DNA of 55,396 nucleotides from IMG/VR virus record IMGVR_UViG_2721755728_000002, one strand, 5' to 3'. Source of the DNA: a virus (Duplodnaviria; Heunggongvirae; Uroviricota; Caudoviricetes). The notes below the pieces were generated by a model, which saw only the letters and a list, made by a program, of their open reading frames with translations, searched no databases and was not told the origin of the DNA. The position numbers and the translations under genes were made by a program. This document shows positions 3,983 to 51,137 of the stretch, piece by piece; position 1 is the stretch's first letter, and every line of letters starts with the position of its first letter.

Positions 3983-4174
3983 TTAAAGACCTGCCGGGAT
4001 TTCGTTATTATCCTGGTGAATAACTTTATCGACCGGGTAACAGTTACCGGGAATTTTCTGTTCGGTTGCTGCAGTCACACACTCCTGCATTGTCCTGTGA
4101 ACACTGACTGCAATATCAACTGGCTCTCCGGAAACAAGAAAAACTGTCAGAACAAGTGCAAATGCTGTATTCAT
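3983..4174 (-). CDS. Small secreted protein (signal peptide, 2 Cys), function unknown
   Basis: MNTAFALVLTVFLVSGEP signal-like N-terminus; start overlaps upstream stop as ATGA (translational coupling). Confidence 0.45.
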   Translation of the reverse strand: MNTAFALVLTVFLVSGEPVDIAVSVHRTMQECVTAATEQKIPGNCYPVDKVIHQDNNEIPAGL

Positions 4175-4359
4175 TGCCAGCATCCTTTTTGTATCGGACG
4201 TAAACGGGCCAGCATTGAAAGAATGCATATTTTATTTAATAACTCCCGTTCGTGTTTTCTCTTGTTAATGGCATCTTCAGTAAATACAGGGTTACTGATA
4301 GTGACACCAATTTCAAAACAACCTTCAGACGTATTAACGTTTGGTAATAACGTTTCCAT
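4171..4359 (-). CDS. Small early-left protein, possibly Kil-like host division inhibitor
   Basis: 62 aa from METLLPNVNTSEG...; position between exo and immunity region matches lambda kil; identity from recall only. Confidence 0.35.
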   Translation of the reverse strand: METLLPNVNTSEGCFEIGVTISNPVFTEDAINKRKHERELLNKICILSMLARLRPIQKGCWQ

Positions 4360-4927
4360 TATCGCGTCCTCAACAATGAATTTTGTGATGCAGTGCCTGG
4401 TGCCTCCAGGTGACGTTAACCAGTTAACAATTAACGCCGGATACAGAGAATCCACCCATAACACTGTTTTTGGTTTTAACTGTTCCGCGTGCGCTTAGCC
4501 GCATTCACCGCATCACAAAATTCACTTTAAAAAGGGCGGCAGAGCAGTCACGGAGTAAAACTGATACCGCCAAACGTCACCAGAAAATTGATAACAGAGG
4601 GCGTTGCAGCGGGGTTGTCACTTAAGCGTATGGTCAACCTGACAACCCGGTGTCCTCAACGGGGGAAGGAATAACCCCGCCATACTTACCGCCGCGCCAT
4701 TTCGCGGATTGCCACAACCGGAAGCGCACGGTCGACGAAAATTTAACGACAGGCTATCTATGAACCAGCTACCTCGCCGTGCGCTTTCGCGTTATGGTCT
4801 GACTTTTCAGGGAAATATCCTTTCAGTAAACTGTCAGTGCCGGATGCTCACCCGTGTCCGGCGCACGCACTCCACCTCATCCGTGGAGAACTCCTTAATT
4901 ACCAACCTTAGCTTCGTTGGTTAGCTA

Positions 4928-5146
4928 TTAACGCGGGTATGTAATCATTCTGGCAATGCTTAATGCCGCTGCTTTTTCCAGATTGGTGATATCCTGCTCC
5001 AGAGCGGACAGATTTTCAGCCTGCTTAGCCCTGGCTTCATTAGCCCATTTCAGATCCTGCGCTGCATTAATTTTCTGGCGCATCCACTCATAAAGTTCAT
5101 CATCGGTATAGTCTGGCGAGATGATGACGGGTTCTCGTTTCTGCAT
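4928..5146 (-). CDS. Hypothetical early-left protein
   Basis: 72 aa ORF in the early-left operon, coiled-coil-like composition. Confidence 0.45.
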   Translation of the reverse strand: MQKREPVIISPDYTDDELYEWMRQKINAAQDLKWANEARAKQAENLSALEQDITNLEKAAALSIARMITYPR

Positions 5147-5305
5147 ACTGATTCCTCGCGGTGCTGCTTCGCTTATCAGCCGTTAGATTTTGCCGAGCTG
5201 GAAAGCGCCTGTTTAAACTCACTGAAGCTGAGAGCTTCTTCGCCTTCGGCAAGGCCTTCGAAGTATTCTTCGTAAGCCTTTTCCATGATTGTGTCGAAAT
5301 CCATA

Positions 5306-5461
5306 TCACTCACCTGAGTTTCTTTCCAGCCAGCGACGGGCACCATTTTCGGTTTTAAACGTTTTGCTTTTGGTATACGTCATCGCGGTGAATGTGCCGT
5401 CCTGGTTGGGAAACACGCCGTACACCAGAGATTCATTGTTGCCAAGATCGATAGTATCCAT
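5306..5461 (-). CDS. DUF1391/YdaF-like small protein
   Basis: 51 aa from MDTIDLGNNESLVYGVFPNQDGTF...; GAGG 6 nt upstream of ATG at 5461. Confidence 0.5.
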   Translation of the reverse strand: MDTIDLGNNESLVYGVFPNQDGTFTAMTYTKSKTFKTENGARRWLERNSGE

Positions 5462-5669
5462 GCTGACCTCATTTCCCCTTAACGCCGGGGTAGCGGAACT
5501 AAAAAACTGCTGCGCTGTTATATAAAGTGTTCCCGCCGTCATGTTCATACGCCTCGGGCTGGCTACTTAACCCCTGACCACTGCCGGGTAACTCGAAGTA
5601 TTGCCTGGCGTTCTGTGGGGCGGGGTGGGTTGATGAATGAATAATACCACTACTATTTAATTATGTAAA

Positions 5670-5682
5670 TAGCAGTGCTATT
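5670..5682. promoter_or_regulatory. Operator-like palindrome ATAG-N5-CTAT (putative OL half-site pair)
   Basis: atagcagtgctat; same motif architecture recurs in the cI-cro intergenic region; overlaps a second inverted repeat ctattta...taaatag (5653-5672). Confidence 0.35.
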
Positions 5683-5692
5683 ATCGTGGCAA

Positions 5693-5718
5693 GAAAAAAA
5701 CCACCCGAAGGTGGTTGT
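5693..5718 (-). terminator. Rho-independent terminator after the toxin-antitoxin/cI transcript
   Basis: On the minus strand, hairpin accacc-ttcg-ggtggt followed by a T-run (plus strand aaaaaaaccacccgaaggtggtt). Confidence 0.45.
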
Positions 5719-5730
5719 TGACAGGAAGGA

Positions 5731-6021
5731 TTAACAGGTTTTGTTTGGATACTGTCTTCGTGAGTGAACTACATTTACGATCTCGATGTTAGATGCTGTT
5801 ACTCGGTAAAGTATTATGTAGTTAGGATGAGTCACTATCTCACGAAGACTTGGAACTCTTTCGCTCGGTGGGTACAGATAAGGGTGTTCAGTAAGTGACA
5901 AAACTGATGTTTCAATGCGTATTTTTAGTCTACGTGCAGCGGGAGGGTTTTCCTTAGCAATATAGGCTACGATCTGACGTAAATCATCACGTGCAGAAGG
6001 TAGCCATAAAATGGGCAGCAT
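5731..6021 (-). CDS. Type II toxin, ParE/RelE family
   Basis: 96 aa; ParE/RelE-like sequence (ILYRV...NIEIVNVVHSRRQYP); stop/start overlap with upstream small gene. Confidence 0.8.
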   Translation of the reverse strand: MLPILWLPSARDDLRQIVAYIAKENPPAARRLKIRIETSVLSLTEHPYLYPPSERVPSLREIVTHPNYIILYRVTASNIEIVNVVHSRRQYPNKTC

Positions 6022-6212
6022 TACTCACTCCTGTTCGTTGCAGCTAATTGAGCAATAAGGTTTTCCATTTCAGCCATTACTTCGTCATGTGGAATTGCAG
6101 GACGGGGATCTGAGAGGCTTGCTGCCACTTTGGTTCGCAACCATTCGTTATAGCTGTTTTCTTGTTCGACTGTTTCAAATTCAGAAATTATCGGGGAAAG
6201 GGCTGTACTCAT
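6021..6212 (-). CDS. Type II antitoxin (ParD-like) partner
   Basis: 63 aa acidic protein immediately upstream of the ParE-like gene with 1-nt overlap. Confidence 0.65.
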   Translation of the reverse strand: MSTALSPIISEFETVEQENSYNEWLRTKVAASLSDPRPAIPHDEVMAEMENLIAQLAATNRSE

Positions 6213-6229
6213 GTTTTTACCTCCTCAGA

Positions 6230-6730
6230 TTAGGCGCGACGACCCTTTTGCGCAGCTAGCCATCGCGCAACGATTTCTTCAATTGATTCTTTTTTCTCCT
6301 TCATTTCCTTAAGCATTTTCTCTTTATCTTCTTTGGGGAAAGCCCTGAACGTCTGGAGCAAATCCCGCTCCATGGGGTCTATATTAAACGGAAGTTCGTT
6401 TTCCGATTGTTCCATATCTGCAGATATAGTGACAACATTGTCCTCCCCAGATTCTTGGGGATACATCCTTACAATTTGTAACAACTCGGCCATATCTGGT
6501 CTGATTGACTCGGGAGGAACTTGCAGCAACCCTGCGAACTTGATAACAGCCTCAAGATTTAAAGGTGTCTGACCATTTAGATAATGGCTTACAGCTCCCT
6601 GTGTCGAAAATCCCAGAATTTCTGCCGCACGCTCTTGGGTTAACCCTAGTTGATTTTTTTTCGCCGTCCAGATTTCTTTCAGTCTCTGGGCGGCTTGCAG
6701 GTCGATCTCTGACAGGGGTTTTCTTTTCAT
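6230..6730 (-). CDS. CI-like prophage repressor (XRE-family HTH)
   Basis: 166 aa; HTH LTQERAAEILGFSTQGAVSHYLNG; divergent from Cro-like gene across an operator-containing intergenic region. Confidence 0.8.
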   Translation of the reverse strand: MKRKPLSEIDLQAAQRLKEIWTAKKNQLGLTQERAAEILGFSTQGAVSHYLNGQTPLNLEAVIKFAGLLQVPPESIRPDMAELLQIVRMYPQESGEDNVVTISADMEQSENELPFNIDPMERDLLQTFRAFPKEDKEKMLKEMKEKKESIEEIVARWLAAQKGRRA

Positions 6731-6837
6731 ACCTTCAATTCTAATAAGATTATTAATCTCTTTGAAATAGTGATGCTATTTACTTTTAAAAATAACAATG
6801 CTATTAATGATCGTAATGACATCACATGAGGTGAACA
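6731..6837. promoter_or_regulatory. Immunity switch region (OR/PR/PRM-like)
   Basis: Divergent intergenic region; ATAG-N5-CTAT palindrome at 6767-6779 and degenerate copy at 6792-6804; TTGAAA -35-like hexamer at 6762-6767. Confidence 0.5.
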
Positions 6838-7113
6838 ATGAATCTTGGAGAATATTTGCATCATTCCGGTATAACTCAGAAGCATTTTGCTGAAATTGTT
6901 GGGGTAACCCAAGGGATGGTAAGCCATGTCATTACCGGACGGGCGAAACTTACGGGGAAAAAAATTTTACGCTGGTGCGAAGCAACAGGCTGGATAGTAA
7001 CTCCGCACGAGATTGATGGCAGTACTTATCCCAACCCAACCGACGGCTTACCTGTCGAGTATCAGGCTAACACACAACCAGAGGCGGGGGTGATTCATGA
7101 AAATCAAGCATGA
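6838..7113 (+). CDS. Cro-like / YdaS-like HTH regulator
   Basis: 91 aa, HTH (ITQKHFAEIVGVTQGMVSHVITG); first gene of the rightward operon. Confidence 0.7.
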   Translation: MNLGEYLHHSGITQKHFAEIVGVTQGMVSHVITGRAKLTGKKILRWCEATGWIVTPHEIDGSTYPNPTDGLPVEYQANTQPEAGVIHENQA

Positions 7114-7522
7114 ACACATCCGCATGGCAATGAATGCCTGGGCGTATCCAGACGGTGAGAAAGTTCCAGCAGCTGAAATAGCCCGGACTTATTTCGAACT
7201 GGGGATGACGTTCCCGGAACTGTACGACGACAGCCATCCGGAAGCCCTGGCCCGTAATACCCAGAAAATTTTCCGCTGGGTAGAGAAAGACACCCCTGAT
7301 GCAGTTGAAAAAATTCAGGCGTTGTTACCAGCGATCGAAAAGGCAATGCCACCTTTGCTGGTGGCCAGAATGCGCAGCCACAGTTCAGCTTATTTTCGGG
7401 AGCTGGTGGAGACGCGGGAGCGACTGGTGAGAGACGCTGATGATTTTGTCGCAGTGGCAATCGCCGGTTTCAATCAGATGAACCGTGGTGGCCCGGCAGG
7501 AAATGCTGTGGCAGTACATTGA
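7097..7522 (+). CDS. YdaT-like regulatory protein (CII position)
   Basis: 141 aa following Cro-like gene with 17-nt overlap; GAGG RBS. Confidence 0.5.
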   Translation: MKIKHEHIRMAMNAWAYPDGEKVPAAEIARTYFELGMTFPELYDDSHPEALARNTQKIFRWVEKDTPDAVEKIQALLPAIEKAMPPLLVARMRSHSSAYFRELVETRERLVRDADDFVAVAIAGFNQMNRGGPAGNAVAVH

Positions 7523-10316: not shown

Positions 10317-11511
<1,195 letters not shown>

Positions 11512-13439: not shown

Positions 13440-13685
13440 ATTCATTACGATATGGGAATTCCCATATCGGGTAAAAACGGTTTGCGGGAAAAGGAGAGTT
13501 AAGTAGAATTGCTGCGGGTGCTTGAGGCTATCTGTCTCAGGCATGAACACCAAAAGGCAGATAGAGAAAAGCCCCAGTTAACATTACGCGTCCTGCAAGA
13601 CGCTTAACATTAATCTGAGGCCCAATCTATGTCTCACAAATGTAGGTTAGCCTCTTACGTGCCGAAAGGCAAGGAGAAGCAGGCT

Positions 13686-13841
13686 ATGAAGCAGCAAAAG
13701 GCGATGTTAATCGCCCTGATCGTCATCTGTTTAACCGTCATAGTGACGGCACTGGTAACGAGGAAAGACCTCTGCGAGGTACGAATCCGAACCGGCCAGA
13801 CGGAGGTCGCTGTCTTCACAGCTTACGAACCTGAGGAATAA
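13686..13841 (+). CDS. hok: Hok/Gef-family type I toxin
   Basis: 51 aa MKQQKAMLIALIVICLTVIVTALVTRKDLCEVRIRTGQTEVAVFTAYEPEE; typical Hok membrane peptide; in-frame upstream extension from 13629. Confidence 0.8.
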   Translation: MKQQKAMLIALIVICLTVIVTALVTRKDLCEVRIRTGQTEVAVFTAYEPEE

Positions 13842-18020: not shown

Positions 18021-18096
18021 GGCCCTTTAGCTCAGTGGTGAGAGCGAGCGACTCATAATCGCCAGGTCGCTGGTTCAAATCCAGCAAGGGCCACCA
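18021..18096 (+). tRNA. tRNA with CAU anticodon (Ile2/ileX-like, or Met)
   Basis: 76 nt cloverleaf; acceptor stem GGCCCTT/AAGGGCC plus ACCA; anticodon loop CTCATAA; GGTTCAAATCC T-arm. Confidence 0.8.
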
Positions 18097-18196
18097 TCAC
18101 AAACCGCCATTAGCTTATCAGGAAGAGCAGACGACACCATAACAGGGTTGTTGGTGCGGGGGCGGGTCCCCGATGGCGGTCCATTATCGGTATTCT

Positions 18197-18273
18197 GCGT
18201 TGTTAGCTCAGCCGGACAGAGCAATTGCCTTCTAAGCAATCGGTCAGTGGTTCGACTCCACTACAACGCGCCA
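18197..18273 (+). tRNA. tRNA-Arg (UCU anticodon)
   Basis: 77 nt; acceptor GCGTTGT/ACAACGC plus GCCA; anticodon stem-loop ATTGC-CTTCTAA-GCAAT; GGTTCGACTCC T-arm. Confidence 0.8.
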
Positions 18274-18874: not shown

Positions 18875-19080
18875 CGGTAAAACTGCGCCTGGCTGTGGCT
18901 GCACTCCTGCTGTTTCTGGTGGTGATGGTGGATTTCACCAGCAGAATCATGTCGGTGCTGGCGGATGGGGTGCTGGTCTGCGGCATTGTGGTATTGCTGT
19001 GGCCGGTGATAAAAAGAAACAGCCTGCATAATGCTTGGTTTTTTTGTTTGCTGTTTATTAAAAACACTTCTGCATGGTGA
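18871..19080 (+). CDS. Small membrane protein coupled to the TerB-like gene
   Basis: 69 aa, two hydrophobic helices; GTGA start/stop overlap. Confidence 0.45.
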   Translation: MTVKLRLAVAALLLFLVVMVDFTSRIMSVLADGVLVCGIVVLLWPVIKRNSLHNAWFFCLLFIKNTSAW

Positions 19081-19205
19081 ATCCCCCTGTGCGGAGGGGC
19101 GATCAGCAACCAGGTATATGGGATAATCGCGGATTTAGGTGCTGATACTGAATTCACCGGGAGGCACCCGGCACCATACAAGAAAAAGAATGTGCATGCA
19201 AACAT

Positions 19206-19230
19206 GCCCCTCTCCGGAGGGGCTTTTTTA
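19206..19230 (+). terminator. Rho-independent terminator
   Basis: gcccctc-tccg-gaggggc followed by ttttttat. Confidence 0.55.
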
Positions 19231-29930: not shown

Positions 29931-30152
29931 ATGGCAAAGATCCGATATCTGCAGGGCACGCATGATGCCCGGGCCGGGGATATCCGTGATGTGGCACAGC
30001 CGTGTGCGGAGGTGCTGGTTCGCCTGGGGAAGGCGGAGTACATCACAGCGCGACGTCCGGCAGGTCAGAAAAAGAAACGTGATGCGGAGCATGGCGAATG
30101 TGGAACCTTTTGCGGCGAACCCGAAAAAACCAGAAATCAGGACGTGACGTAA
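29931..30152 (+). CDS. Possible small ORF between capsid and portal genes
   Basis: 73 aa ORF; weak RBS. Confidence 0.2.
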   Translation: MAKIRYLQGTHDARAGDIRDVAQPCAEVLVRLGKAEYITARRPAGQKKKRDAEHGECGTFCGEPEKTRNQDVT

Positions 30153-31462
30153 GAGAAGTGGGCTGGCGGTCCCTGTTTCAGGCGGTGGCTGAGCCTTTTG
30201 CCGGTGCCTGGCAGCAGGGTGTGAAAGCCGATCCGGAAACCGTTTTGTCCTTTCACGCGGTGTTTTCATGCATTTCGCTGATATCCCAGGATATTGCCAA
30301 AATGCGGCTTCGCCTGATGCAGACTGATGTACAGGGAATACGCCGGGAAAAGCGGCAGGGAGATACTGCCCGTCTCTGTCGTCGTCCTAATGCGCAGCAG
30401 AATCGCATCCAGTTTTTTGAACTGTGGCTGAATTCCAAATTGCGTCACGGCAATACGGTGGTGCTGAAAATCCGCAACCCCCGGGGGCAGATCAAAGAAC
30501 TGCGTATTCTGGACTGGAACCGGGTTGAACCTCTGGTGGCGGATGACGGCGACGTGTTCTACCGCATCACGCCGGACCGGAACTGTGGGATCACAGAGTC
30601 GGTGACGGTGCCTGCCCGGGAGGTGATCCACGACCGTTTTAACTGTTTTTTTCATCCGCTTGTGGGGCTGCCGCCGGTGTATGCCGCAGGACTGGCCGCC
30701 ATGCAGGGGCATCATATTCAGGCAAATTCGACGTATTTTTTCAGAAATGGCGGGCGACCATCAGGCGTGATTGAGGTCCCCGGCAGTATTACGGAAGAAA
30801 ACGCGAAAAAACTGAAGGGGAACTGGGACAGCGGATATACGGGCGAAAATGCCGGGAAGACGGCCATACTGAGCAACGGGGCAAAATACAGCCCCACGAC
30901 GTTTTCACCGGTGGATGCGCAGACGGTGGAACAACTGAAAATGACGGCTGAAATTGTCTGTTCGGTGTTCCGTGTCCCGGCCTACAAGATTGGCGTTGGC
31001 CACCCGCCTTCCAGTGACAACGTGGAGGCGCTGGAGCAGCAGTATTATTCCCAGTGTCTGCAGACGCTGATTGAGTCCATTGAGCTGTTACTGGATGAGG
31101 CGCTGGAAACGGGGGAAAACGAGAGCACGGAGTTTGACGTCACCACGCTGCTGAGAATGGACAGCGAACGGCGCATGAAAACACTGGGTGAATCGGTGAA
31201 AAATACGCTTCTCACGCCCAATGAGGCCCGTAAACGTGAGAACCTGCCGCCCCTTGCCGGCGGTGATGCACTGTATCTTCAGCAGCAGAACTACAGTCTG
31301 GAGGCGCTGTCCCGTCGTGATGCCCGTGAGGACCCGTTCGCGTCGGCCGGGAAAACAGTTTCAGCACAACTGCCTGACGGCGCATCTGACGGTAATAAGG
31401 CAATCAGTGAAACAGAGCATGATGCAGTGAAAGCGATGTTCAGGGGGATACTGAGAAAATGA
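30098..31462 (+). CDS. Portal protein (HK97 family)
   Basis: Portal-like sequence (FFRNGGRPSGVIEV..., LKGNWDSGYTGENAGKTAIL..., FRVPAYKIGVG); alternative GTG start at 30158. Confidence 0.75.
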   Translation: MWNLLRRTRKNQKSGRDVREVGWRSLFQAVAEPFAGAWQQGVKADPETVLSFHAVFSCISLISQDIAKMRLRLMQTDVQGIRREKRQGDTARLCRRPNAQQNRIQFFELWLNSKLRHGNTVVLKIRNPRGQIKELRILDWNRVEPLVADDGDVFYRITPDRNCGITESVTVPAREVIHDRFNCFFHPLVGLPPVYAAGLAAMQGHHIQANSTYFFRNGGRPSGVIEVPGSITEENAKKLKGNWDSGYTGENAGKTAILSNGAKYSPTTFSPVDAQTVEQLKMTAEIVCSVFRVPAYKIGVGHPPSSDNVEALEQQYYSQCLQTLIESIELLLDEALETGENESTEFDVTTLLRMDSERRMKTLGESVKNTLLTPNEARKRENLPPLAGGDALYLQQQNYSLEALSRRDAREDPFASAGKTVSAQLPDGASDGNKAISETEHDAVKAMFRGILRK

Positions 31463-32358
31463 CGGAACGGGAACTGTCCATTATTCGTGCACTGGGCGAA
31501 GAATTCTCCACGGTGCTGGCGGATTTACAGCGCACATTTGAGGGGAAGATGGCCGCGCAGGCACAAGCGTTTGAAGAGAAACTGGCTTCCCTGTCGGCGG
31601 TATTACAGAAGCATGTGACGGTGGATGAGGTACATCCGGTTCTGCAGGCGATGGTGGATGACGCTGTGGGGACCATTCCGGTACCGCGTGATGGTCGTGA
31701 TTATGATCCGGATGTACTGCAGCAGGCGGTGAATGATGCGGTTGCGAATATTCCGGTACCGGCGGACGGCAAAAGTATCACCCCCGATGATGTGCGTCCG
31801 ATGCTTGAGCAGATGGTGAAAGAGGCCGTAAGCCATATCCCTGCTCCGCGTGATGGTCGTGATTACGATCCGGAAGTACTGAAGCAGGCGGTTCTGGAGG
31901 CGGTGAATGCCCTTCCGGCTCCGCAGGACGGGCGTGATGCCACGGCACTGGAAGTGCTCCCCGCTATTGACGATCAAAAATCCTTTCCCCGGGGCACGTA
32001 TGCCACACACCTGGGTGGACTCTGGCGGGCGTATGAAAAAACGCACGGGATGCGGGGATGGGAATGCCTGGTTGACGGGGTGGCGGATATCGACGTCAGC
32101 ATGACGGATGAGCGGTTGTTCTCTGTGGTGATCCGGCAGAGCAGTGGCCAGTGTACGGAAAAAACATTTTCCCTGCCGGTGATGCTCTACCGCGGTGTGT
32201 TCAGAGCCGGTGAAACCTACCACCCCGGCGATACGGTGACGTGGGGGGGCTCGCTGTGGCACTGCAACAGTATGACCGGTGATAAACCCGGAGAAGCTCA
32301 TTCATCAGGCTGGACCCTGGCTGCAAAACGTGGACGGGATGCAGGAGGCGGAAAATGA
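31459..32358 (+). CDS. Head-associated protein with internal ~30-aa tandem repeats
   Basis: Repeats such as IPVPRDGRDYDPDVLQQAVNDAV / IPAPRDGRDYDPEVLKQAVLEAV. Confidence 0.55.
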   Translation: MTERELSIIRALGEEFSTVLADLQRTFEGKMAAQAQAFEEKLASLSAVLQKHVTVDEVHPVLQAMVDDAVGTIPVPRDGRDYDPDVLQQAVNDAVANIPVPADGKSITPDDVRPMLEQMVKEAVSHIPAPRDGRDYDPEVLKQAVLEAVNALPAPQDGRDATALEVLPAIDDQKSFPRGTYATHLGGLWRAYEKTHGMRGWECLVDGVADIDVSMTDERLFSVVIRQSSGQCTEKTFSLPVMLYRGVFRAGETYHPGDTVTWGGSLWHCNSMTGDKPGEAHSSGWTLAAKRGRDAGGGK

Positions 32359-40370: not shown

Positions 40371-40948
40371 ACACGGCAGCGGAAGCCATCCGTGCCCTGT
40401 CGATGCAGATGCCGGGATTCCGCCGTCAGATGAACGAAGGCTGGTACCAGATACGTATTGCCGGTGAAGACATGGCACCGGAGGCGGTGTATGCCCGCCT
40501 TCACGAACAACTGGGTGAGGGAACGGTCATCCATATTGTGCCGCGACTGGCCGGTGCAGGGAAAGGCGGACTGCAGATTGTGCTGGGGGCGGCAGCCATC
40601 GTGGGCTCTTTCTTCACCGCCGGCGCAACGATGGCGTTATGGGGTTCAGCCCTGGCAGCCGGCGGTTTTTCTGCCACCACGATGCTGTTTTCACTGGGGG
40701 CCAGCATGATACTGGGCGGTGTGGCCCAGATGCTGGCCCCGAAGGCAAAGACGCCGGAGTACAAAAGTACGGATAACGGTAAACAGAACACGTATTTTTC
40801 GTCACTGGACAACATGATTGCCCAGGGGAACCCGATGCCGGTGCCTTACGGTGAAATGCTGGTTGGCTCCCGGCGAATCTCCCAGGACATCAGCACCCGT
40901 GATGAAGGTGGTGGCGGGAAGGTGGTGGTTATCGGGCGGCAGGGGTAA
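40268..40948 (+). CDS. I: Tail assembly protein I
   Basis: Colinear with lambda I (ARICLYGDLQRFGRR..., GAAAIAGSFFTAGAT..., TDNGKQNTYFSSLDNM). Confidence 0.85.
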   Translation: MATTNAFCLASPPLARICLHGDLQRFGRRLSLYVNTAAEAIRALSMQMPGFRRQMNEGWYQIRIAGEDMAPEAVYARLHEQLGEGTVIHIVPRLAGAGKGGLQIVLGAAAIVGSFFTAGATMALWGSALAAGGFSATTMLFSLGASMILGGVAQMLAPKAKTPEYKSTDNGKQNTYFSSLDNMIAQGNPMPVPYGEMLVGSRRISQDISTRDEGGGGKVVVIGRQG

Positions 40949-43900
40949 AGCATAAAAAAATCCCGCAGTGTATGGAGGCTGCGGGAACAGAAAATGAAGA
41001 TTAACCACAGGGGGTTTTGTTTTTATTGGCCCGAAAAAACTGTAACGCCCGGGAATGATATCTGCCACGGGGCGTACAGAAAATGTGAAGAAATTCAGAA
41101 ATTTTATTCCGTCATGACACAGGCACCCTCCGGGGTGCCTGTCGTTTTTGGGGCATAAACAGATTCAGACATCAGACAGGAGAGGGGGACAGAGTGGGTA
41201 AAGGTGGCGGCAGGGCGCACACGCCGGTAGAGGCAAAGGACAATCTTAAGTCCACGCAGATGATGAGCGTGATTGACGCCATTGGTGAAGGGCCGATTGA
41301 AGGTCCGGTGAAGGGGCTGCAGAGTATTCTGGTGAACAAAACCCCGCTGACGGACACGGACGGTAATCCTGTGATACATGGTGTGACAGCGGTCTGGCGC
41401 GCCGGGGAGCAGGAGCAGACACCGCCGGAAGGTTTTGAGTCATCCGGCTCTGAAACCGCACTGGGCGTGGAAGTGACGAAGGCAAAGCCGGTGACGCGCA
41501 CCATTACGTCCGCGAACATTGACCGCCTGCGGGTCACCTTCGGGGTGCAGTCACTGGTGCAGACCACCTCACAGGGTGACCGTAACCCGGCATCCGTCCG
41601 CCTGCTGATTCAGCTGCAGCGTAACGGTAACTGGGTGACGGAAAAGGATGTCACCATTAACGGCAAGACCACCTCACAGTTCCTCGCTTCGGTGATTCTG
41701 GATAATCTGCCTCCCCGCCCCTTTAACATCCGGATGGTCAGGGAGACGGCGGACAGCACCACGGACCAGCTGCAGAATAAGACGCTCTGGTCGTCATACA
41801 CCGAAATCATCGATGTGAAACAGTGCTACCCGAACACGGCGATTGTGGGGCTGCAGGTGGATGCGGAGCAGTTTGGCGGTCAGCAGATGACGGTGAACTA
41901 CCATATCCGAGGTCGCATCATCCAGGTGCCGTCAAACTATGACCCGGAAAAACGCACGTACAGCGGCATCTGGGACGGCAGCCTGAAACCGGCATACAGC
42001 AACAACCCGGCCTGGTGCCTGTGGGACATGCTGACTCACCCGCGCTACGGCATGGGAAAACGTCTGGTGGCGGCGGATGTTGACAAGTGGGCGCTGTATG
42101 CCATTGCGCAGTACTGCGACCAGACGGTCCCGGATGGTTTCGGGGGCACAGAGCCGCGGATGACCTTTAATGCGTACCTGTCACAACAGCGTAAGGCATG
42201 GGATGTGCTCAGTGATTTCTGCTCGGCGATGCGCTGTATGCCGGTATGGAACGGCCAGACGCTGACGTTCGTTCAGGACCGCCCGTCGGATGTGGTGTGG
42301 CCGTACACCAACTGCGATGTGGTGGTGGATGATAACGGCGTGGGGTTTCGCTACAGCTTCAGCGCCCTGAAGGACCGCCACACGGCGGTGGAGGTGAATT
42401 ACACCGACCCGCAGAACGGCTGGCAGACCTCCACGGAACTGGTGGAAGACCCGGAAGCCATACTGCGCTACGGGCGCAACCTGCTGAAGATGGATGCGTT
42501 CGGTTGCACCAGTCGCGGTCAGGCCCACCGTGCCGGGCTGTGGGTGATAAAGACCGGACTGCTGGAAACGCAGACGGTGGATTTCACGCTCGGGTCACAG
42601 GGGCTGCGTCACACACCCGGTGACATTATTGAAATCTGTGATAACGACTATGCCGGGACCATGACCGGCGGACGTATCCTGTCCATCGATGCCGCCAGCC
42701 GCACCCTGACACTGGACCGTGAGGTGACCCTGCCGGAGACAGGTGCCGCCACGGTGAACCTGATTAACGGCAGCGGTAAGCCGGTGAGCGTGGCCATCAC
42801 TGCACACCCCGCGCCGGACCGGATACAGGTCAGCACCCTGCCTGATGGTGTGGAGACATACGGTGTATGGGGACTCTCCCTGCCGTCACTGCGTCGTCGC
42901 CTGTTCCGCTGTGTCTCCATCCGGGAAAACACGGACGGCACCTTTGCCATCACGGCGGTGCAGCACGTACCGGAAAAAGAAGCCATTGTGGATAACGGGG
43001 CCAGCTTTGAGCCACTGTCCGGTTCGCTGAACAGCGTCATCCCGCCGGCTGTGCAGCACCTGACGGTGGAGGTGAGCGCGGCTGACGGTCAGTATCTGGC
43101 ACAGGCGAAATGGGACACGCCGCGGGTGGTGAAGGGTGTGCGCTTCAGTCTGCGCCTGACCAGCGGAAGCGGAGAAGACAGCCGTCTGGTGACCACCGCC
43201 ATCACTGCGGATACAGAGCACCGTTTCAGTGGTCTGCCGCCCGGGGAATACACCCTGACAGTCAGGGCAATTAACAGTTATGGCCAGCAGGGCGAACCGG
43301 CCACCACCACGTTCAGGATTAATGCACCTGCGGTACCCGCCACGATTGAGCTGACACCGGGCTATTTTCAGATAACAGCGGTCCCGCGTCTTGCGGTGTA
43401 TGACCCGACGGTACAGTTTGAGTTCTGGTTTTCGGAGACAAAAATCGCAGACATATCTCAGGTGGAAACCTCTGCCCGTTATCTGGGGACCGGCAGTCAG
43501 TGGAGTGTATCCGGCCCGCACATTAAGCCCGGGAAGGATTTCTGGTTTTACGTGCGCAGCGTCAACCTGGTGGGGAAATCTGCGTTTGTGGAAGTCAGCG
43601 GGCAGCCCAGCAATGATGGTGAAGGGTATCTGGAATTTTTCCGGGAAAAAATAGGAAAACTGCATCTGGCTCAGGGGCTGTGGGAGCTGATAGACAACAG
43701 CCAGCTTGCGGATGAGATGGCGGAGATGAAGACCACCATCACCGAAACCCGCAATGAAATCACACAGACGGTCAGTAAAACGCTGGAGGACCAGAGCGCC
43801 ACCATACAGCAGATACAGCGCGTGCAGAAGGACACAAATGATGACCTTGCTGCACTTTACATGCTGAAGGTACAGAAAACAAAAAATGCCGGTGAAGACA

Positions 43901-46900
43901 TGGCACCGGAGGCGGTGTATGCCCGCCTTCACGAACAACTGGGTGAGGGAACGGTCATCCATATTGTGCCGCGACTGGCCGGTGCAGGGAAAGGCGGACT
44001 GCAGATTGTGCTGGGGGCGGCAGCCATCGTGGGCTCTTTCTTCACCGCCGGCGCAACGATGGCGTTATGGGGTTCAGCCCTGGCAGCCGGCGGTTTTTCT
44101 GCCACCACGATGCTGTTTTCACTGGGGGCCAGCATGATACTGGGCGGTGTGGCCCAGATGCTGGCCCCGAAGGCAAAGACGCCGGAGTACAAAAGTACGG
44201 ATAACGGTAAACAGAACACGTATTTTTCGTCACTGGACAACATGATTGCCCAGGGGAACCCGATGCCGGTGCCTTACGGTGAAATGCTGGTTGGCTCCCG
44301 GCGAATCTCCCAGGACATCAGCACCCGTGATGAAGGTGGTGGCGGGAAGGTGGTGGTTATCGGGCGGCAGGGGTAAAGCATAAAAAAATCCCGCAGTGTA
44401 TGGAGGCTGCGGGAACAGAAAATGAAGATTAACCACAGGGGGTTTTGTTTTTATTGGCCCGAAAAAACTGTAACGCCCGGGAATGATATCTGCCACGGGG
44501 CGTACAGAAAATGTGAAGAAATTCAGAAATTTTATTCCGTCATGACACAGGCACCCTCCGGGGTGCCTGTCGTTTTTGGGGCATAAACAGATTCAGACAT
44601 CAGACAGGAGAGGGGGACAGAGTGGGTAAAGGTGGCGGCAGGGCGCACACGCCGGTAGAGGCAAAGGACAATCTTAAGTCCACGCAGATGATGAGCGTGA
44701 TTGACGCCATTGGTGAAGGGCCGATTGAAGGTCCGGTGAAGGGGCTGCAGAGTATTCTGGTGAACAAAACCCCGCTGACGGACACGGACGGTAATCCTGT
44801 GATACATGGTGTGACAGCGGTCTGGCGCGCCGGGGAGCAGGAGCAGACACCGCCGGAAGGTTTTGAGTCATCCGGCTCTGAAACCGCACTGGGCGTGGAA
44901 GTGACGAAGGCAAAGCCGGTGACGCGCACCATTACGTCCGCGAACATTGACCGCCTGCGGGTCACCTTCGGGGTGCAGTCACTGGTGCAGACCACCTCAC
45001 AGGGTGACCGTAACCCGGCATCCGTCCGCCTGCTGATTCAGCTGCAGCGTAACGGTAACTGGGTGACGGAAAAGGATGTCACCATTAACGGCAAGACCAC
45101 CTCACAGTTCCTCGCTTCGGTGATTCTGGATAATCTGCCTCCCCGCCCCTTTAACATCCGGATGGTCAGGGAGACGGCGGACAGCACCACGGACCAGCTG
45201 CAGAATAAGACGCTCTGGTCGTCATACACCGAAATCATCGATGTGAAACAGTGCTACCCGAACACGGCGATTGTGGGGCTGCAGGTGGATGCGGAGCAGT
45301 TTGGCGGTCAGCAGATGACGGTGAACTACCATATCCGAGGTCGCATCATCCAGGTGCCGTCAAACTATGACCCGGAAAAACGCACGTACAGCGGCATCTG
45401 GGACGGCAGCCTGAAACCGGCATACAGCAACAACCCGGCCTGGTGCCTGTGGGACATGCTGACTCACCCGCGCTACGGCATGGGAAAACGTCTGGTGGCG
45501 GCGGATGTTGACAAGTGGGCGCTGTATGCCATTGCGCAGTACTGCGACCAGACGGTCCCGGATGGTTTCGGGGGCACAGAGCCGCGGATGACCTTTAATG
45601 CGTACCTGTCACAACAGCGTAAGGCATGGGATGTGCTCAGTGATTTCTGCTCGGCGATGCGCTGTATGCCGGTATGGAACGGCCAGACGCTGACGTTCGT
45701 TCAGGACCGCCCGTCGGATGTGGTGTGGCCGTACACCAACTGCGATGTGGTGGTGGATGATAACGGCGTGGGGTTTCGCTACAGCTTCAGCGCCCTGAAG
45801 GACCGCCACACGGCGGTGGAGGTGAATTACACCGACCCGCAGAACGGCTGGCAGACCTCCACGGAACTGGTGGAAGACCCGGAAGCCATACTGCGCTACG
45901 GGCGCAACCTGCTGAAGATGGATGCGTTCGGTTGCACCAGTCGCGGTCAGGCCCACCGTGCCGGGCTGTGGGTGATAAAGACCGGACTGCTGGAAACGCA
46001 GACGGTGGATTTCACGCTCGGGTCACAGGGGCTGCGTCACACACCCGGTGACATTATTGAAATCTGTGATAACGACTATGCCGGGACCATGACCGGCGGA
46101 CGTATCCTGTCCATCGATGCCGCCAGCCGCACCCTGACACTGGACCGTGAGGTGACCCTGCCGGAGACAGGTGCCGCCACGGTGAACCTGATTAACGGCA
46201 GCGGTAAGCCGGTGAGCGTGGCCATCACTGCACACCCCGCGCCGGACCGGATACAGGTCAGCACCCTGCCTGATGGTGTGGAGACATACGGTGTATGGGG
46301 ACTCTCCCTGCCGTCACTGCGTCGTCGCCTGTTCCGCTGTGTCTCCATCCGGGAAAACACGGACGGCACCTTTGCCATCACGGCGGTGCAGCACGTACCG
46401 GAAAAAGAAGCCATTGTGGATAACGGGGCCAGCTTTGAGCCACTGTCCGGTTCGCTGAACAGCGTCATCCCGCCGGCTGTGCAGCACCTGACGGTGGAGG
46501 TGAGCGCGGCTGACGGTCAGTATCTGGCACAGGCGAAATGGGACACGCCGCGGGTGGTGAAGGGTGTGCGCTTCAGTCTGCGCCTGACCAACGGAAGCGG
46601 AGAAGACAGCCGTCTGGTGACCACCGCCATCACTGCGGATACAGAGCATCGTTTCAGTGGTCTGCCGCTCGGGGAATACACCCTGACAGTCAGGGCAATT
46701 AACAGGTATGGCCAGCAGGGCGAACCGGCCACCACCACCTTCCGGATTAACGCGCCAGCAAAACCCGCCACCATTGAACTGACGCCGGGGTATTTTCAGA
46801 TAACGGCGGTCCCGCGTCTTGCGGTGTATGACCCGACGGTACAGTTTGAGTTCTGGTTTTCGGAGGCAAAAATCGCAGACACATCTCAGGTGGAAACCTC

Positions 46901-47318
46901 TGCCCGTTATCTGGGGACCGGCAGTCAGTGGAGTGTATCCGGCCCGCACATTAAGCCCGGGAAGGATTTCTGGTTTTACGTGCGCAGCGTCAACCTGGTG
47001 GGGAAATCTGCGTTTGTGGAAGTCAGCGGGCAGCCCAGCAATGATGGTGAAGGGTATCTGGAATTTTTCCGGGAAAAAATAGGAAAACTGCATCTGGCTC
47101 AGGGGCTATGGGAGCTGATAGACAACAGCCAGCTTGCGGATGAGATGGCGGAGATGAAGACCACCATCACCGAAACCCGCAATGAAATCACACAGACGGT
47201 CAGTAAAACGCTGGAAGACCAGAGCGCCACCATTCAGCAGATACAGCGCGTGCAGAAGGACACAAATGATGACCTGGCTGCGCTGTACATGCTGAAGGTT
47301 CAAAAAACGAAAGACGGC
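40463..47318 (+). repeat. Tandem direct repeat, 2 x ~3428 bp (I 3' part + intergenic + J 5' ~2.7 kb)
   Basis: Six-frame ORFs recur with 3428-bp offset (e.g. 40458/43886, 41194/44622); proximal ~2.7 kb appears identical, distal ~730 bp differs at scattered positions. Confidence 0.8.
41194..44376 (+). CDS. Chimeric ORF: J N-terminal ~890 aa fused in frame to I C-terminal ~170 aa
   Basis: Lambda J-like through ...LKVQKTK, then switches to I sequence AGEDMAPEAVYARL... and ends with the I C-terminus. Confidence 0.7.
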   Translation: MGKGGGRAHTPVEAKDNLKSTQMMSVIDAIGEGPIEGPVKGLQSILVNKTPLTDTDGNPVIHGVTAVWRAGEQEQTPPEGFESSGSETALGVEVTKAKPVTRTITSANIDRLRVTFGVQSLVQTTSQGDRNPASVRLLIQLQRNGNWVTEKDVTINGKTTSQFLASVILDNLPPRPFNIRMVRETADSTTDQLQNKTLWSSYTEIIDVKQCYPNTAIVGLQVDAEQFGGQQMTVNYHIRGRIIQVPSNYDPEKRTYSGIWDGSLKPAYSNNPAWCLWDMLTHPRYGMGKRLVAADVDKWALYAIAQYCDQTVPDGFGGTEPRMTFNAYLSQQRKAWDVLSDFCSAMRCMPVWNGQTLTFVQDRPSDVVWPYTNCDVVVDDNGVGFRYSFSALKDRHTAVEVNYTDPQNGWQTSTELVEDPEAILRYGRNLLKMDAFGCTSRGQAHRAGLWVIKTGLLETQTVDFTLGSQGLRHTPGDIIEICDNDYAGTMTGGRILSIDAASRTLTLDREVTLPETGAATVNLINGSGKPVSVAITAHPAPDRIQVSTLPDGVETYGVWGLSLPSLRRRLFRCVSIRENTDGTFAITAVQHVPEKEAIVDNGASFEPLSGSLNSVIPPAVQHLTVEVSAADGQYLAQAKWDTPRVVKGVRFSLRLTSGSGEDSRLVTTAITADTEHRFSGLPPGEYTLTVRAINSYGQQGEPATTTFRINAPAVPATIELTPGYFQITAVPRLAVYDPTVQFEFWFSETKIADISQVETSARYLGTGSQWSVSGPHIKPGKDFWFYVRSVNLVGKSAFVEVSGQPSNDGEGYLEFFREKIGKLHLAQGLWELIDNSQLADEMAEMKTTITETRNEITQTVSKTLEDQSATIQQIQRVQKDTNDDLAALYMLKVQKTKNAGEDMAPEAVYARLHEQLGEGTVIHIVPRLAGAGKGGLQIVLGAAAIVGSFFTAGATMALWGSALAAGGFSATTMLFSLGASMILGGVAQMLAPKAKTPEYKSTDNGKQNTYFSSLDNMIAQGNPMPVPYGEMLVGSRRISQDISTRDEGGGGKVVVIGRQG

Positions 47319-48098
47319 ATACCCTATGTTGCCGGGATTGGAGCGGGGATTGAGGATACTGATGGCCAGTCACTGAGCAACATACTGCTGCTGGCTGACC
47401 GTATCGCGATGATAAATCCGGAGAGCGGCAACAGCACGCCGTTATTTGTGGCGCAGGGGAATCAGCTGTTCATGAACGACGTGTTCCTGAAACGACTGTT
47501 TGCGGTGAGTATCACGTCATCCGGCAACCCCCCGACGTTTTCCCTGACGCCGGAAGGGAAGCTGACAGCCAGGAACGCGGATATCAGCGGAGCAATTACC
47601 GCGAATACCGGCACGCTCAATAATGTCACCATTAACGAGAACTGTGTCATCAGAGGGAAACTGTCTGCAAACCAGATTGAAGGCGACCTGGTGAAGACGG
47701 TGGGGAAAGCCTTTCCCCGGAATAACAGTTATGCCAGCGGGACGGTAACCGTCACAGTTTACGATGACCAGGGCTTCGACCGGCAGATTATCATTCCCCC
47801 GGTGCTGTTTCGCGGGACGAAACACCAGAATTTCAACAGCCCGAATCAGCAGTCGTACTGGTATTCCACCTGTAAGCTGCAGGTGCTGAAGAACGGGGTT
47901 GAGATTTTCCATGAACCGGCAACGGATGTCAGCCGGGTGTTCTCATCGGTGATAGATATGCCGGCAGGGCGGGGTCATGTCACCCTGACGTTTAATGTGT
48001 CGTCGGCCGGTGCGAACAACTGGACGCCGACAACGTACATCAGTGATTTACTGGTTGTGGTCATGAAAAAATCCACGGCAGGGATCAGTATCAGCTGA
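44622..48098 (+). CDS. J: Tail tip / host specificity protein J
   Basis: 1158 aa colinear with lambda J along its full length; GTG start with AGGAGAGGGGG RBS. Confidence 0.9.
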
Positions 48099-50490: not shown

Positions 50491-50561
50491 TTGTCATGTA
50501 TGGGGGCTGTTTGTTATGACTCCCTGTGTTTGGAATGAATATTTAAATAGGGAGTTTTGTC

Positions 50562-51137
50562 ATGCCGTTAACATCAGCTATTGCATCCAATTCATTTTCC
50601 ACCGGAATGCAGGTTCTTCGTGCTCAAATGGCCGCCAGTGGCGGTGGAGAAATTACAGTAGGCGGGCAGACGGTCCGTATCACATATAGTGAAACGGATG
50701 GTCGCTTTCTGGCGAGTGGGGGCAATAACAGTTTGCTTTCTGGATTATTACTTACAGGGCTTAATGGTGGTCCTGAAGCGCTCAGGGATATAATGTTAAG
50801 AATGGTTTCAGGTTCAGGTAACACACAATCACATGGTGATATTGAGGGGAAAATATCACAATGTAAGTTTTCTGTTAATACGGAGAGCCTTCAGTGTCCA
50901 TCCGAGGCGGTTCGATGCCCAATTATACTGGATAAACCAGAAGAAGGTGTGTTTGTTAAAAATTCAGAAGGTTCTTTGGTTTGTACCTTATTTGATTCGG
51001 TTTCTTTTTCTCATTTGGTTCGCGACGGTGGGAAGCACCCGCTAACACGAGAACCAATAACGTCATCAATGATTGTAAGTCAAGAACAATGTATTTATGA
51101 CCAAACCAAAGGAAACTTTGTCATAAAGGATAAGTGA
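50562..51137 (+). CDS. nleG: NleG-family type III effector (U-box E3 ligase-like)
   Basis: 191 aa; C-terminal conserved block CPIILDKPEEGVFVKNSEG...CTLFD...HPLTREPIT. Confidence 0.8.
   Translation: MPLTSAIASNSFSTGMQVLRAQMAASGGGEITVGGQTVRITYSETDGRFLASGGNNSLLSGLLLTGLNGGPEALRDIMLRMVSGSGNTQSHGDIEGKISQCKFSVNTESLQCPSEAVRCPIILDKPEEGVFVKNSEGSLVCTLFDSVSFSHLVRDGGKHPLTREPITSSMIVSQEQCIYDQTKGNFVIKDK

Follow-up and report, generated by a model that had tools for sequence, protein, structure and literature searches.

The window, by which we mean the whole 55,396-nucleotide stretch of DNA analysed here, in all likelihood carries a paaA-parE type II toxin–antitoxin (TA) cassette within the lysogenic operon of a lambdoid E. 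coli prophage, where by homology it would act as an addiction mechanism. On comparison of the sequences, the pair belongs to the published three-component paaR-paaA-parE family, an identification that is settled by the PDB, Pfam, RefSeq annotation and the literature. This membership is reflected in a ParE toxin close to ParE1 and ParE2 (PF05016; 65% identity to ParE2 and 88% to the O157:H7 paralogue-1 toxin), preceded directly by a PaaA-family antitoxin that lacks a DNA-binding domain. An upstream helix-turn-helix (HTH) regulator is of the PaaR type by its tail, but has an N-terminal domain that is lambda-cI-like rather than PaaR1- or PaaR2-like, and the three genes lie in a lambdoid immunity region, divergent from ydaS/ydaT and with PL/OL situated past the toxin gene. 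The pair, its position in the immunity region and its addictive behaviour have already been described in E. coli O157:H7 prophages, and the finding is therefore correct, but not new. The coordinates of the features in this region are collected in Table 1.

Table 1. Positions of the lysogenic operon, its control sites and the divergent genes in the window
Feature	Position	Strand	Description
PL-like promoter	5669..5641	-	TTTACA-17-TATTAT; promoter scan 10/12, TG-extended
OL-like operators	5643-5657 and 5668-5682		overlap the PL-like promoter; pattern search
Intrinsic terminator	5716..5699	-	AACCACC-TTCG-GGTGGTT followed by T-run; terminator scan
parE-type toxin gene	6021..5731	-	96 aa; Pfam ParE_toxin and PDB ParE2 matches
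paaA-type antitoxin gene	6212..6021	-	63 aa; Pfam PaaA2, NCBIfam and PDB matches
Repressor gene, cI/paaR position	6730..6230	-	166 aa; Pfam HTH_3 only
PRM-like promoter	6738..6766	-	TTCAAA-17-TAGAAT; promoter scan 9/12
OR-like operators	6766-6780 and 6791-6805		AATAGTGATGCTATT and AATAACAATGCTATT; repressor/cro intergenic region; pattern search
PR-like promoter	6779-6784 and 6802-6807	+	TTTACT-17-TATTAA; by eye, overlapped by the OR-like operators
Cro/YdaS-like HTH gene	6838..7113	+	divergent from the repressor; Pfam HTH_3; PHROG 35, E 4e-20
YdaT operator-like site	7090-7107		GTGATTCATGAAAATCAA; one mismatch to TTGATTN6AATCAA; homologous position
YdaT (cII analogue) gene	7097..7522	+	Pfam YdaT_toxin; PHROG 163 CII-like activator, E 1e-44

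The pair consists of two open reading frames that had been placed at 5731–6212 by a sequence-only reading of this DNA, and both are found at exactly these coordinates, intact and full length relative to their homologues. The toxin has a full-length match to Pfam ParE_toxin (E 6.6e-18, 65.5 bits with a cut-off of 23) and a match to ParE2 in PDB entry 5cw7_B over residues 1–92 (E 5e-36, 65% identity), as well as to entries 5cze and 5czf. The antitoxin matches Pfam PaaA2 (PF21217) across residues 16–48 (E 1e-21, 77.1 bits, cut-off 27), NCBIfam NF050103 (92.8 bits, cut-off 50) and PaaA2 in PDB entries 3zbe and 5cw7 (E 2e-22, approximately 70% identity), while no DNA-binding domain is detected, PaaA2 being its sole Pfam match at E ≤ 0.01. 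The matches of both proteins to their families are far beyond chance, and the agreement of Pfam, NCBIfam and PDB bears out the earlier description of a ParE-type toxin with a cognate small antitoxin. We note that the four C-terminal residues of the toxin, NKTC, are unlike those of every homologue compared. The antitoxin ATG is preceded by GAGGAGG, and the antitoxin stop codon and the toxin ATG have one base in common within a TAATG overlap (minus strand AGGAGTGAGTAATGCTG), with a Shine-Dalgarno AGGAG located inside the 3' end of the antitoxin gene. The translational coupling that had been proposed is thus seen at the sequence level, as are the gene identities and the gene order.

The fold family alone would also accommodate a RelE-like toxin, that is, a ribosome-dependent mRNA endonuclease instead of a ParE-type DNA/topoisomerase poison, since Pfam PF05016 spans both RelE and ParE, NCBIfam RelE_StbE (TIGR02385) scores 27.6 bits, just below its cut-off of 27.9, and the antitoxin is named 'RelB family' in RefSeq. 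We regard this as highly unlikely. The closest solved structures to the toxin are all ParE proteins. The toxin is 65% identical to ParE2, a protein of solved structure for which co-localisation with the nucleoid and induction of SOS have been reported (PMC8630535). Moreover, the antitoxin falls into the PaaA2 family, which is described as being defined by its association with ParE (PMC4803016). The RelE-type assignment was rejected, given that the curated threshold of TIGR02385 is not reached and that NF050103 carries 'RelB family' as no more than an annotation label.

The repressor gene ends 17 nt ahead of the antitoxin ATG. Residues 2–90 of the repressor match structures of the N-terminal domain of lambda cI (1lmb, 7jvt and others; E 1e-10), whereas the C-terminal ~45 residues (LLQtFrAFP...ARWLAAQKgRRA) align with PaaR2 and with the paralogue-1 regulator, and an NCBIfam match to DicA is found in this C-terminal stretch. 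Judged from these alignments, the repressor is a chimera of a lambda-cI-like N-terminal HTH domain and a PaaR/DicA-type tail. A Pfam search finds no S24 peptidase (autocleavage) domain in the repressor, and therefore RecA-mediated induction would not be expected. The -10 element of the PRM-like promoter ends 7–8 nt ahead of the repressor ATG, suggesting that the repressor mRNA is probably leaderless, like that of lambda cI; leaderless paaR2 and cI are documented (PMC8630535). At the other end of the operon, the intrinsic terminator lies 14 nt past the toxin stop codon (RNA fold -10.4 kcal/mol, z -2.75). No convincing terminator is found between 6730 and 5731, where the sole match (6405–6389) is weak and located inside the repressor gene; in total, the terminator scan returned 3 sites, compared with 2.1 expected from shuffles.

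The control sites on both sides of the operon share a 15-bp near-palindromic operator, AATAGNNNTGCTATT, with copies at 5643, 5668, 6766 and 6791, the centres being 25 bp apart within the OL-like pair as well as within the OR-like pair. The OL-like site at 5668–5682 is a perfect palindrome, AATAGCACTGCTATT. Within the 55-kb window, AATAGNNNTGCTATT with at most one mismatch occurs at those four sites only, and with at most two mismatches it gives 10 strand matches, 8 of which come from the four sites; 100 shuffles gave a mean of 3.0 matches and never as many as 10. The PR-like promoter was not returned by the promoter scan and is read by analogy with the PL-like promoter. A third, OR3-like operator over the PRM-like promoter (~6742–6756, TAATAAGATTATTA) was considered and rejected, as this candidate, though palindromic, departs from the operator consensus at 4 positions; its use as an operator would be speculation.

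Divergent from the repressor, the Cro/YdaS-like protein aligns through its C-terminal half with the YdaS-position proteins of related loci. The YdaT operator TTGATTN6AATCAA has been footprinted in CP-933P (PMC9986795). In the window, this pattern is not enriched (2 matches versus 2.8 expected), and the candidate site at 7090–7107 is therefore accepted solely on its alignment with the site footprinted in homologous loci. The label 'toxin YdaT' that Pfam and RefSeq attach to 7097–7522 is misleading, the homologue being reported as a non-toxic cII-like transcription activator (PMC8630535, PMC9986795).

The published systems provide the framework for how the window cassette may operate. The genes paaR, paaA and parE reportedly form one transcript, which starts at a sigma-70 promoter ahead of paaR, with PaaA lacking a DNA-binding domain and PaaR being required for full repression (Hallez 2010, via PMC4803016). 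Two paralogous systems are reported in O157:H7, the antitoxins of which, PaaA1 and PaaA2, show no cross-neutralisation (PMC4803016). One of them, the RAE2 locus, maps to the immunity region of CP-933P/Sp12, a cryptic prophage of the lambdoid type (Jurenas 2021, PMC8630535), where PaaR2 is described as the functional analogue of cI, YdaS of Cro and YdaT of cII (PMC8630535). A PL/OL block (PL933P/OL) follows beyond RAE2, an arrangement that the authors liken to lambda cI-rexA-rexB (PMC8630535). The paaR2-paaA2-parE2 system is reported to stabilise an unstable plasmid by post-segregational killing, that is, by addiction (PMC8630535, PMC4803016). The earlier sequence-only reading, which allowed for a prophage-stabilising role, agrees in essence with this published account, although it did not recognise the system as one already described.

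By analogy, we suggest that during lysogeny the PRM-like promoter would direct the synthesis of a single repressor-antitoxin-toxin message ending at 5716–5699, and that a YdaT-activated PRE-like promoter probably gives rise to the same message while lysogeny is being established, the toxin being translated from this message via coupling to the antitoxin. The antitoxin, which is small and mostly disordered, would wrap around the ParE toxin and thereby neutralise it. Since the antitoxin lacks a DNA-binding domain, control of transcription would fall to the prophage repressor and the Cro-like protein. The antitoxin is predicted to be proteolytically unstable, as published experiments report for PaaA2, the instability of which depends on ClpAP/ClpXP (PMC8630535, PMC4803016), such that loss of the cassette or the immunity region would free the toxin and lead to DNA/topoisomerase-related damage and induction of SOS. 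Because the toxin would be freed upon cassette loss, the cassette would serve as an addiction module and in this way confer stability on both the immunity region and the prophage.

For the window pair itself, we infer co-transcription, toxicity, neutralisation, antitoxin instability and addiction from the published homologue, bearing in mind that the window toxin and ParE2 are unlike at roughly one residue in three. In CP-933P, the immunity switch is reported to be bistable, with ParE2 being activated in neither transcriptional state (PMC8630535), and therefore the natural trigger and the biological role of the window cassette are put forward as a proposal. [quoted passage not shown]

The pair is flanked by the cI-like repressor gene on one side and by the terminator/OL block on the other, which confirms the earlier assignment to the rexAB-equivalent slot. 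Such a location in the lysogenic operon would be compatible with a pair that serves primarily in abortive infection or superinfection exclusion as an equivalent of RexAB, with the toxin being released by an infecting phage, and published work connects further RelE/ParE-superfamily and TA modules with phage defence. We nevertheless consider this primary role improbable, since neither toxin, antitoxin nor repressor has a PADLOC-DB v2 match at E ≤ 0.01, for which reason a phage-defence assignment of the pair was rejected. Indeed, Pfam and PHROGs assign the pair solely to the ParE and PaaA2 families or to PHROGs without a known function, with no homology to RexA or RexB. In addition, the cited papers describe the homologue only as addictive, with the toxin silent under the conditions tested there, and we found no phage-challenge data in this literature. 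Addiction remains our preferred reading of the cassette.

O157:H7 genomes match the window pair in two places, namely RAE2 and the locus L002 of strain ATCC 43894. We infer that L002 represents paralogue 1, because it is the O157:H7 copy other than ParE2; paaR1-paaA1-parE1 is reported on prophage CP-933M (Hallez et al. 2010). The window resembles paralogue 1 in its toxin (88% identical) and antitoxin (84%), its gene order and stop/start overlap, the leftward DUF1391/ydfB/dicB genes, YdaT (88% identical) and the last ~45 residues of the regulator. [quoted passage not shown] The O157:H7 paralogue-1 prophage adjoins yccA, whereas the prophage of strain C3 that is near-identical to that of the window adjoins potC, and the possibility that the window prophage is the same element at the same site was rejected on this basis. 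In strain O18, a related allele encodes a toxin 84% and an antitoxin 87% identical to those of the window, the antitoxin thus being 84–87% identical to its type-1 homologues. The type-1 pattern is present both in the C-terminal third of the antitoxin and in the N-terminal hairpin of the toxin, and therefore the pair looks cognate.

At the DNA level, the window is homologous to the type-1 loci over 5400–6360, a segment that includes the early genes to the left, the TA pair and the final ~43 repressor codons, and homology resumes at 7023 with the C-terminal half of Cro and YdaT. [quoted passage not shown] The TA cassette and the repressor tail share ~77% DNA identity with the type-1 O157:H7 locus (L002/L003), and the PL region (5641–5690) can otherwise be aligned with L002/L003, the operator positions having been replaced. 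The pattern indicates that recombination swapped the immunity functions around the TA cassette, while the cassette was kept. Six loci, including that of phage Evi, share the order regulator-antitoxin-toxin with divergent ydaS/ydaT-like genes and leftward DUF1391/ydfB/dicB genes, and combine at least four types of regulator N-terminus with one ~45-residue tail (…LLQxFxAFP…ARWxAAQKxRRA). From these alignments, the TA cassette together with the C-terminal tail of the repressor appears to form a conserved core, around which the parts that confer immunity specificity are exchanged. With a PaaR-type tail joined to a lambda-cI-like DNA-binding domain, and with operators of its own, the window therefore represents a heteroimmune variant of the known system. 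This swap of the immunity module is the sole local difference from the known system, and is a minor one, typical of lambdoid mosaicism.

The cassette is widespread in E. coli, with a homologue of the pair in 841 of the 5426 complete genomes. The immunity module of the window occurs in 71 genomes, and the combined 1281-bp block of repressor, TA pair and OL is present to 80% or more in 69 genomes. This block is 100% identical in E. coli C3 and is found at ≥99% identity in about 43 complete genomes, including O104:H4 2009EL-2071, and RefSeq already lists the identical genes, under the names 'RelE/ParE family toxin' (WP_014966210.1) and 'RelB family antitoxin' (WP_000100896.1). In the phage collection, near-identical DNA is limited to a ~70-bp conserved stretch left of PL, and a protein search of the same collection returned only phage Evi and one distant metagenomic fragment.

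Elsewhere in the window, several features of the prophage were observed. A perfect 3428-bp tandem direct duplication (40459–47314) comprises the end of a tail assembly gene and most of the tail-tip J gene, and leaves a truncated J-like ORF (41194–44376) ahead of the full one (44622–48098). It is missing from the otherwise 99.6–99.9% identical prophage of E. coli C3, and could be real or an assembly artefact. Leftward of PL, a Qin-like division-inhibition module (4171–4585, minus strand) contains dicB (4171–4359) and the DicF sRNA (4534–4585; Rfam RF00039, 76.7 bits), with ydfA/ydfB/ydfC-like genes at 4928–5461. A second, unrelated TA system, the type I hokD with its sok antisense RNA (Rfam RF01794, 120 bits), is located at 13516–13841 (plus strand). 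Two phage tRNA genes are present at 18021–18273 and 19043–19297, the first called tRNA-Met (CAT) by ARAGORN and tRNA-Ile in RefSeq, and thus probably a lysidine-modified Ile2, and the second being tRNA-Arg (TCT); the sRNAs STnc100 (plus strand) and AgvB (anti-GcvB, minus strand) follow downstream. The right end of the prophage (~50500–55396) carries type III secretion effector genes (NleG family, DUF1076 proteins and EspW), at positions taken from the C3 annotation (L004 47130–49989) and shifted by the duplication, and the prophage is therefore an effector-carrying lambdoid prophage.

The prophage is probably defective, like CP-933P. An IS5 element is placed in the early-right region (~10385–11365) by the 99.9% collinearity with the C3 annotation, and the portal gene (30098–32358) is split into ORFs of 454 aa and 299 aa, being frameshifted according to the annotation of strain C3. 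Such decay might suggest that the pair is itself an inactive remnant, a reading that we find scarcely credible in view of the intact ORFs, coupling signals, terminator and operators and the retention of the locus at ≥99% identity in about 43 complete genomes. The rates of substitution likewise speak against it: where synonymous sites are unsaturated, and only there, dN/dS for the pair is 0.03–0.11, with values of 0.07–0.11 for the antitoxin. For the toxin, comparison with related alleles gives pN of 0.07–0.09 versus pS of 0.74–0.78, and for the pair compared with type-1 alleles pN is 0.06–0.09 with pS of 0.5–0.8, near saturation. Since pN is low despite near-saturated pS, both genes of the cassette are under purifying selection.

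As a discovery, the pair carries little weight, given that the three-gene organisation, the place in the immunity region, the regulation by cI/Cro/cII analogues and the addiction are all published. It is of modest value as a natural variant that joins a type-1 PaaA-ParE cassette to a heterologous lambda-cI-like repressor domain and other operators, and could therefore be used for testing whether, as has been proposed in print, the TA cassette limits recombination in prophage immunity regions. A stronger version, which we think rather unlikely, holds that the toxin actively shapes heteroimmune recombination. Were this the case, only recombinants that keep the cognate antitoxin would survive and immunity swaps would therefore be forced around the cassette, such that the lambda-cI-like/PaaR chimera would be a natural product of a recombination filter. 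A further reading, likewise rather unlikely, gives the cassette a second role in RexAB-like abortive infection.

Among the known systems, the RAE2 locus of CP-933P (5CW7, 5CZE, 3ZBE) shares with the window the three-gene operon in the immunity region, the leaderless-looking regulator gene, the divergent ydaS/ydaT genes, PL/OL past the toxin gene and the YdaT operator at the ydaS/ydaT junction, with YdaT of the RAE2 locus in phage Evi being 95% identical to that of the window. In contrast, the RAE2 toxin and antitoxin are only 65% and 70% identical to those of the window, and the C-terminal third of the antitoxin and the N-terminal hairpin of the toxin belong to the other specificity type. PaaR2 (123 aa) is unlike the window repressor in its N-terminal domain, has reported 18-bp inverted repeats (consensus half-site GTTTAGTAA) that differ from the window operators, and is published as having no sequence similarity to cI, whereas the N-terminal domain of the window repressor does resemble cI. 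A sequenced phage genome, that of phage Evi (LR597642), likewise contains paaR2-paaA2-parE2, and there the regulator begins with MQKKE, the N-terminus determined for PaaR2 (PMC8630535), and is accompanied by a PaaA2-type antitoxin. The Evi toxin ORF (L005 3001–3279; LR597642.1 24917–25195) is identical to PDB ParE2 across all 92 residues and is unannotated, while the neighbouring regulator and antitoxin are annotated.

The lambda cI-rexA-rexB operon likewise has accessory genes directly past the repressor and a terminator next to OL/PL, and the N-terminal domain of its repressor is homologous to that of the window repressor. However, Rex acts by phage-triggered membrane depolarisation, whereas the published mechanism of the window homologue is antitoxin-controlled addiction, and the window repressor differs from cI in lacking the S24 autocleavage domain. 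With the canonical ParD-ParE systems (RK2, Caulobacter and Vibrio), the window pair shares a ParE-fold toxin, an antitoxin gene located upstream and, by homology, neutralisation by direct binding. ParD autoregulates its operon through an N-terminal ribbon-helix-helix DNA-binding domain. The window antitoxin is not a ParD, however, as Pfam and NCBIfam searches return PaaA2 only and no ribbon-helix-helix or ParD match, and regulation would instead be left to the separate prophage repressor.
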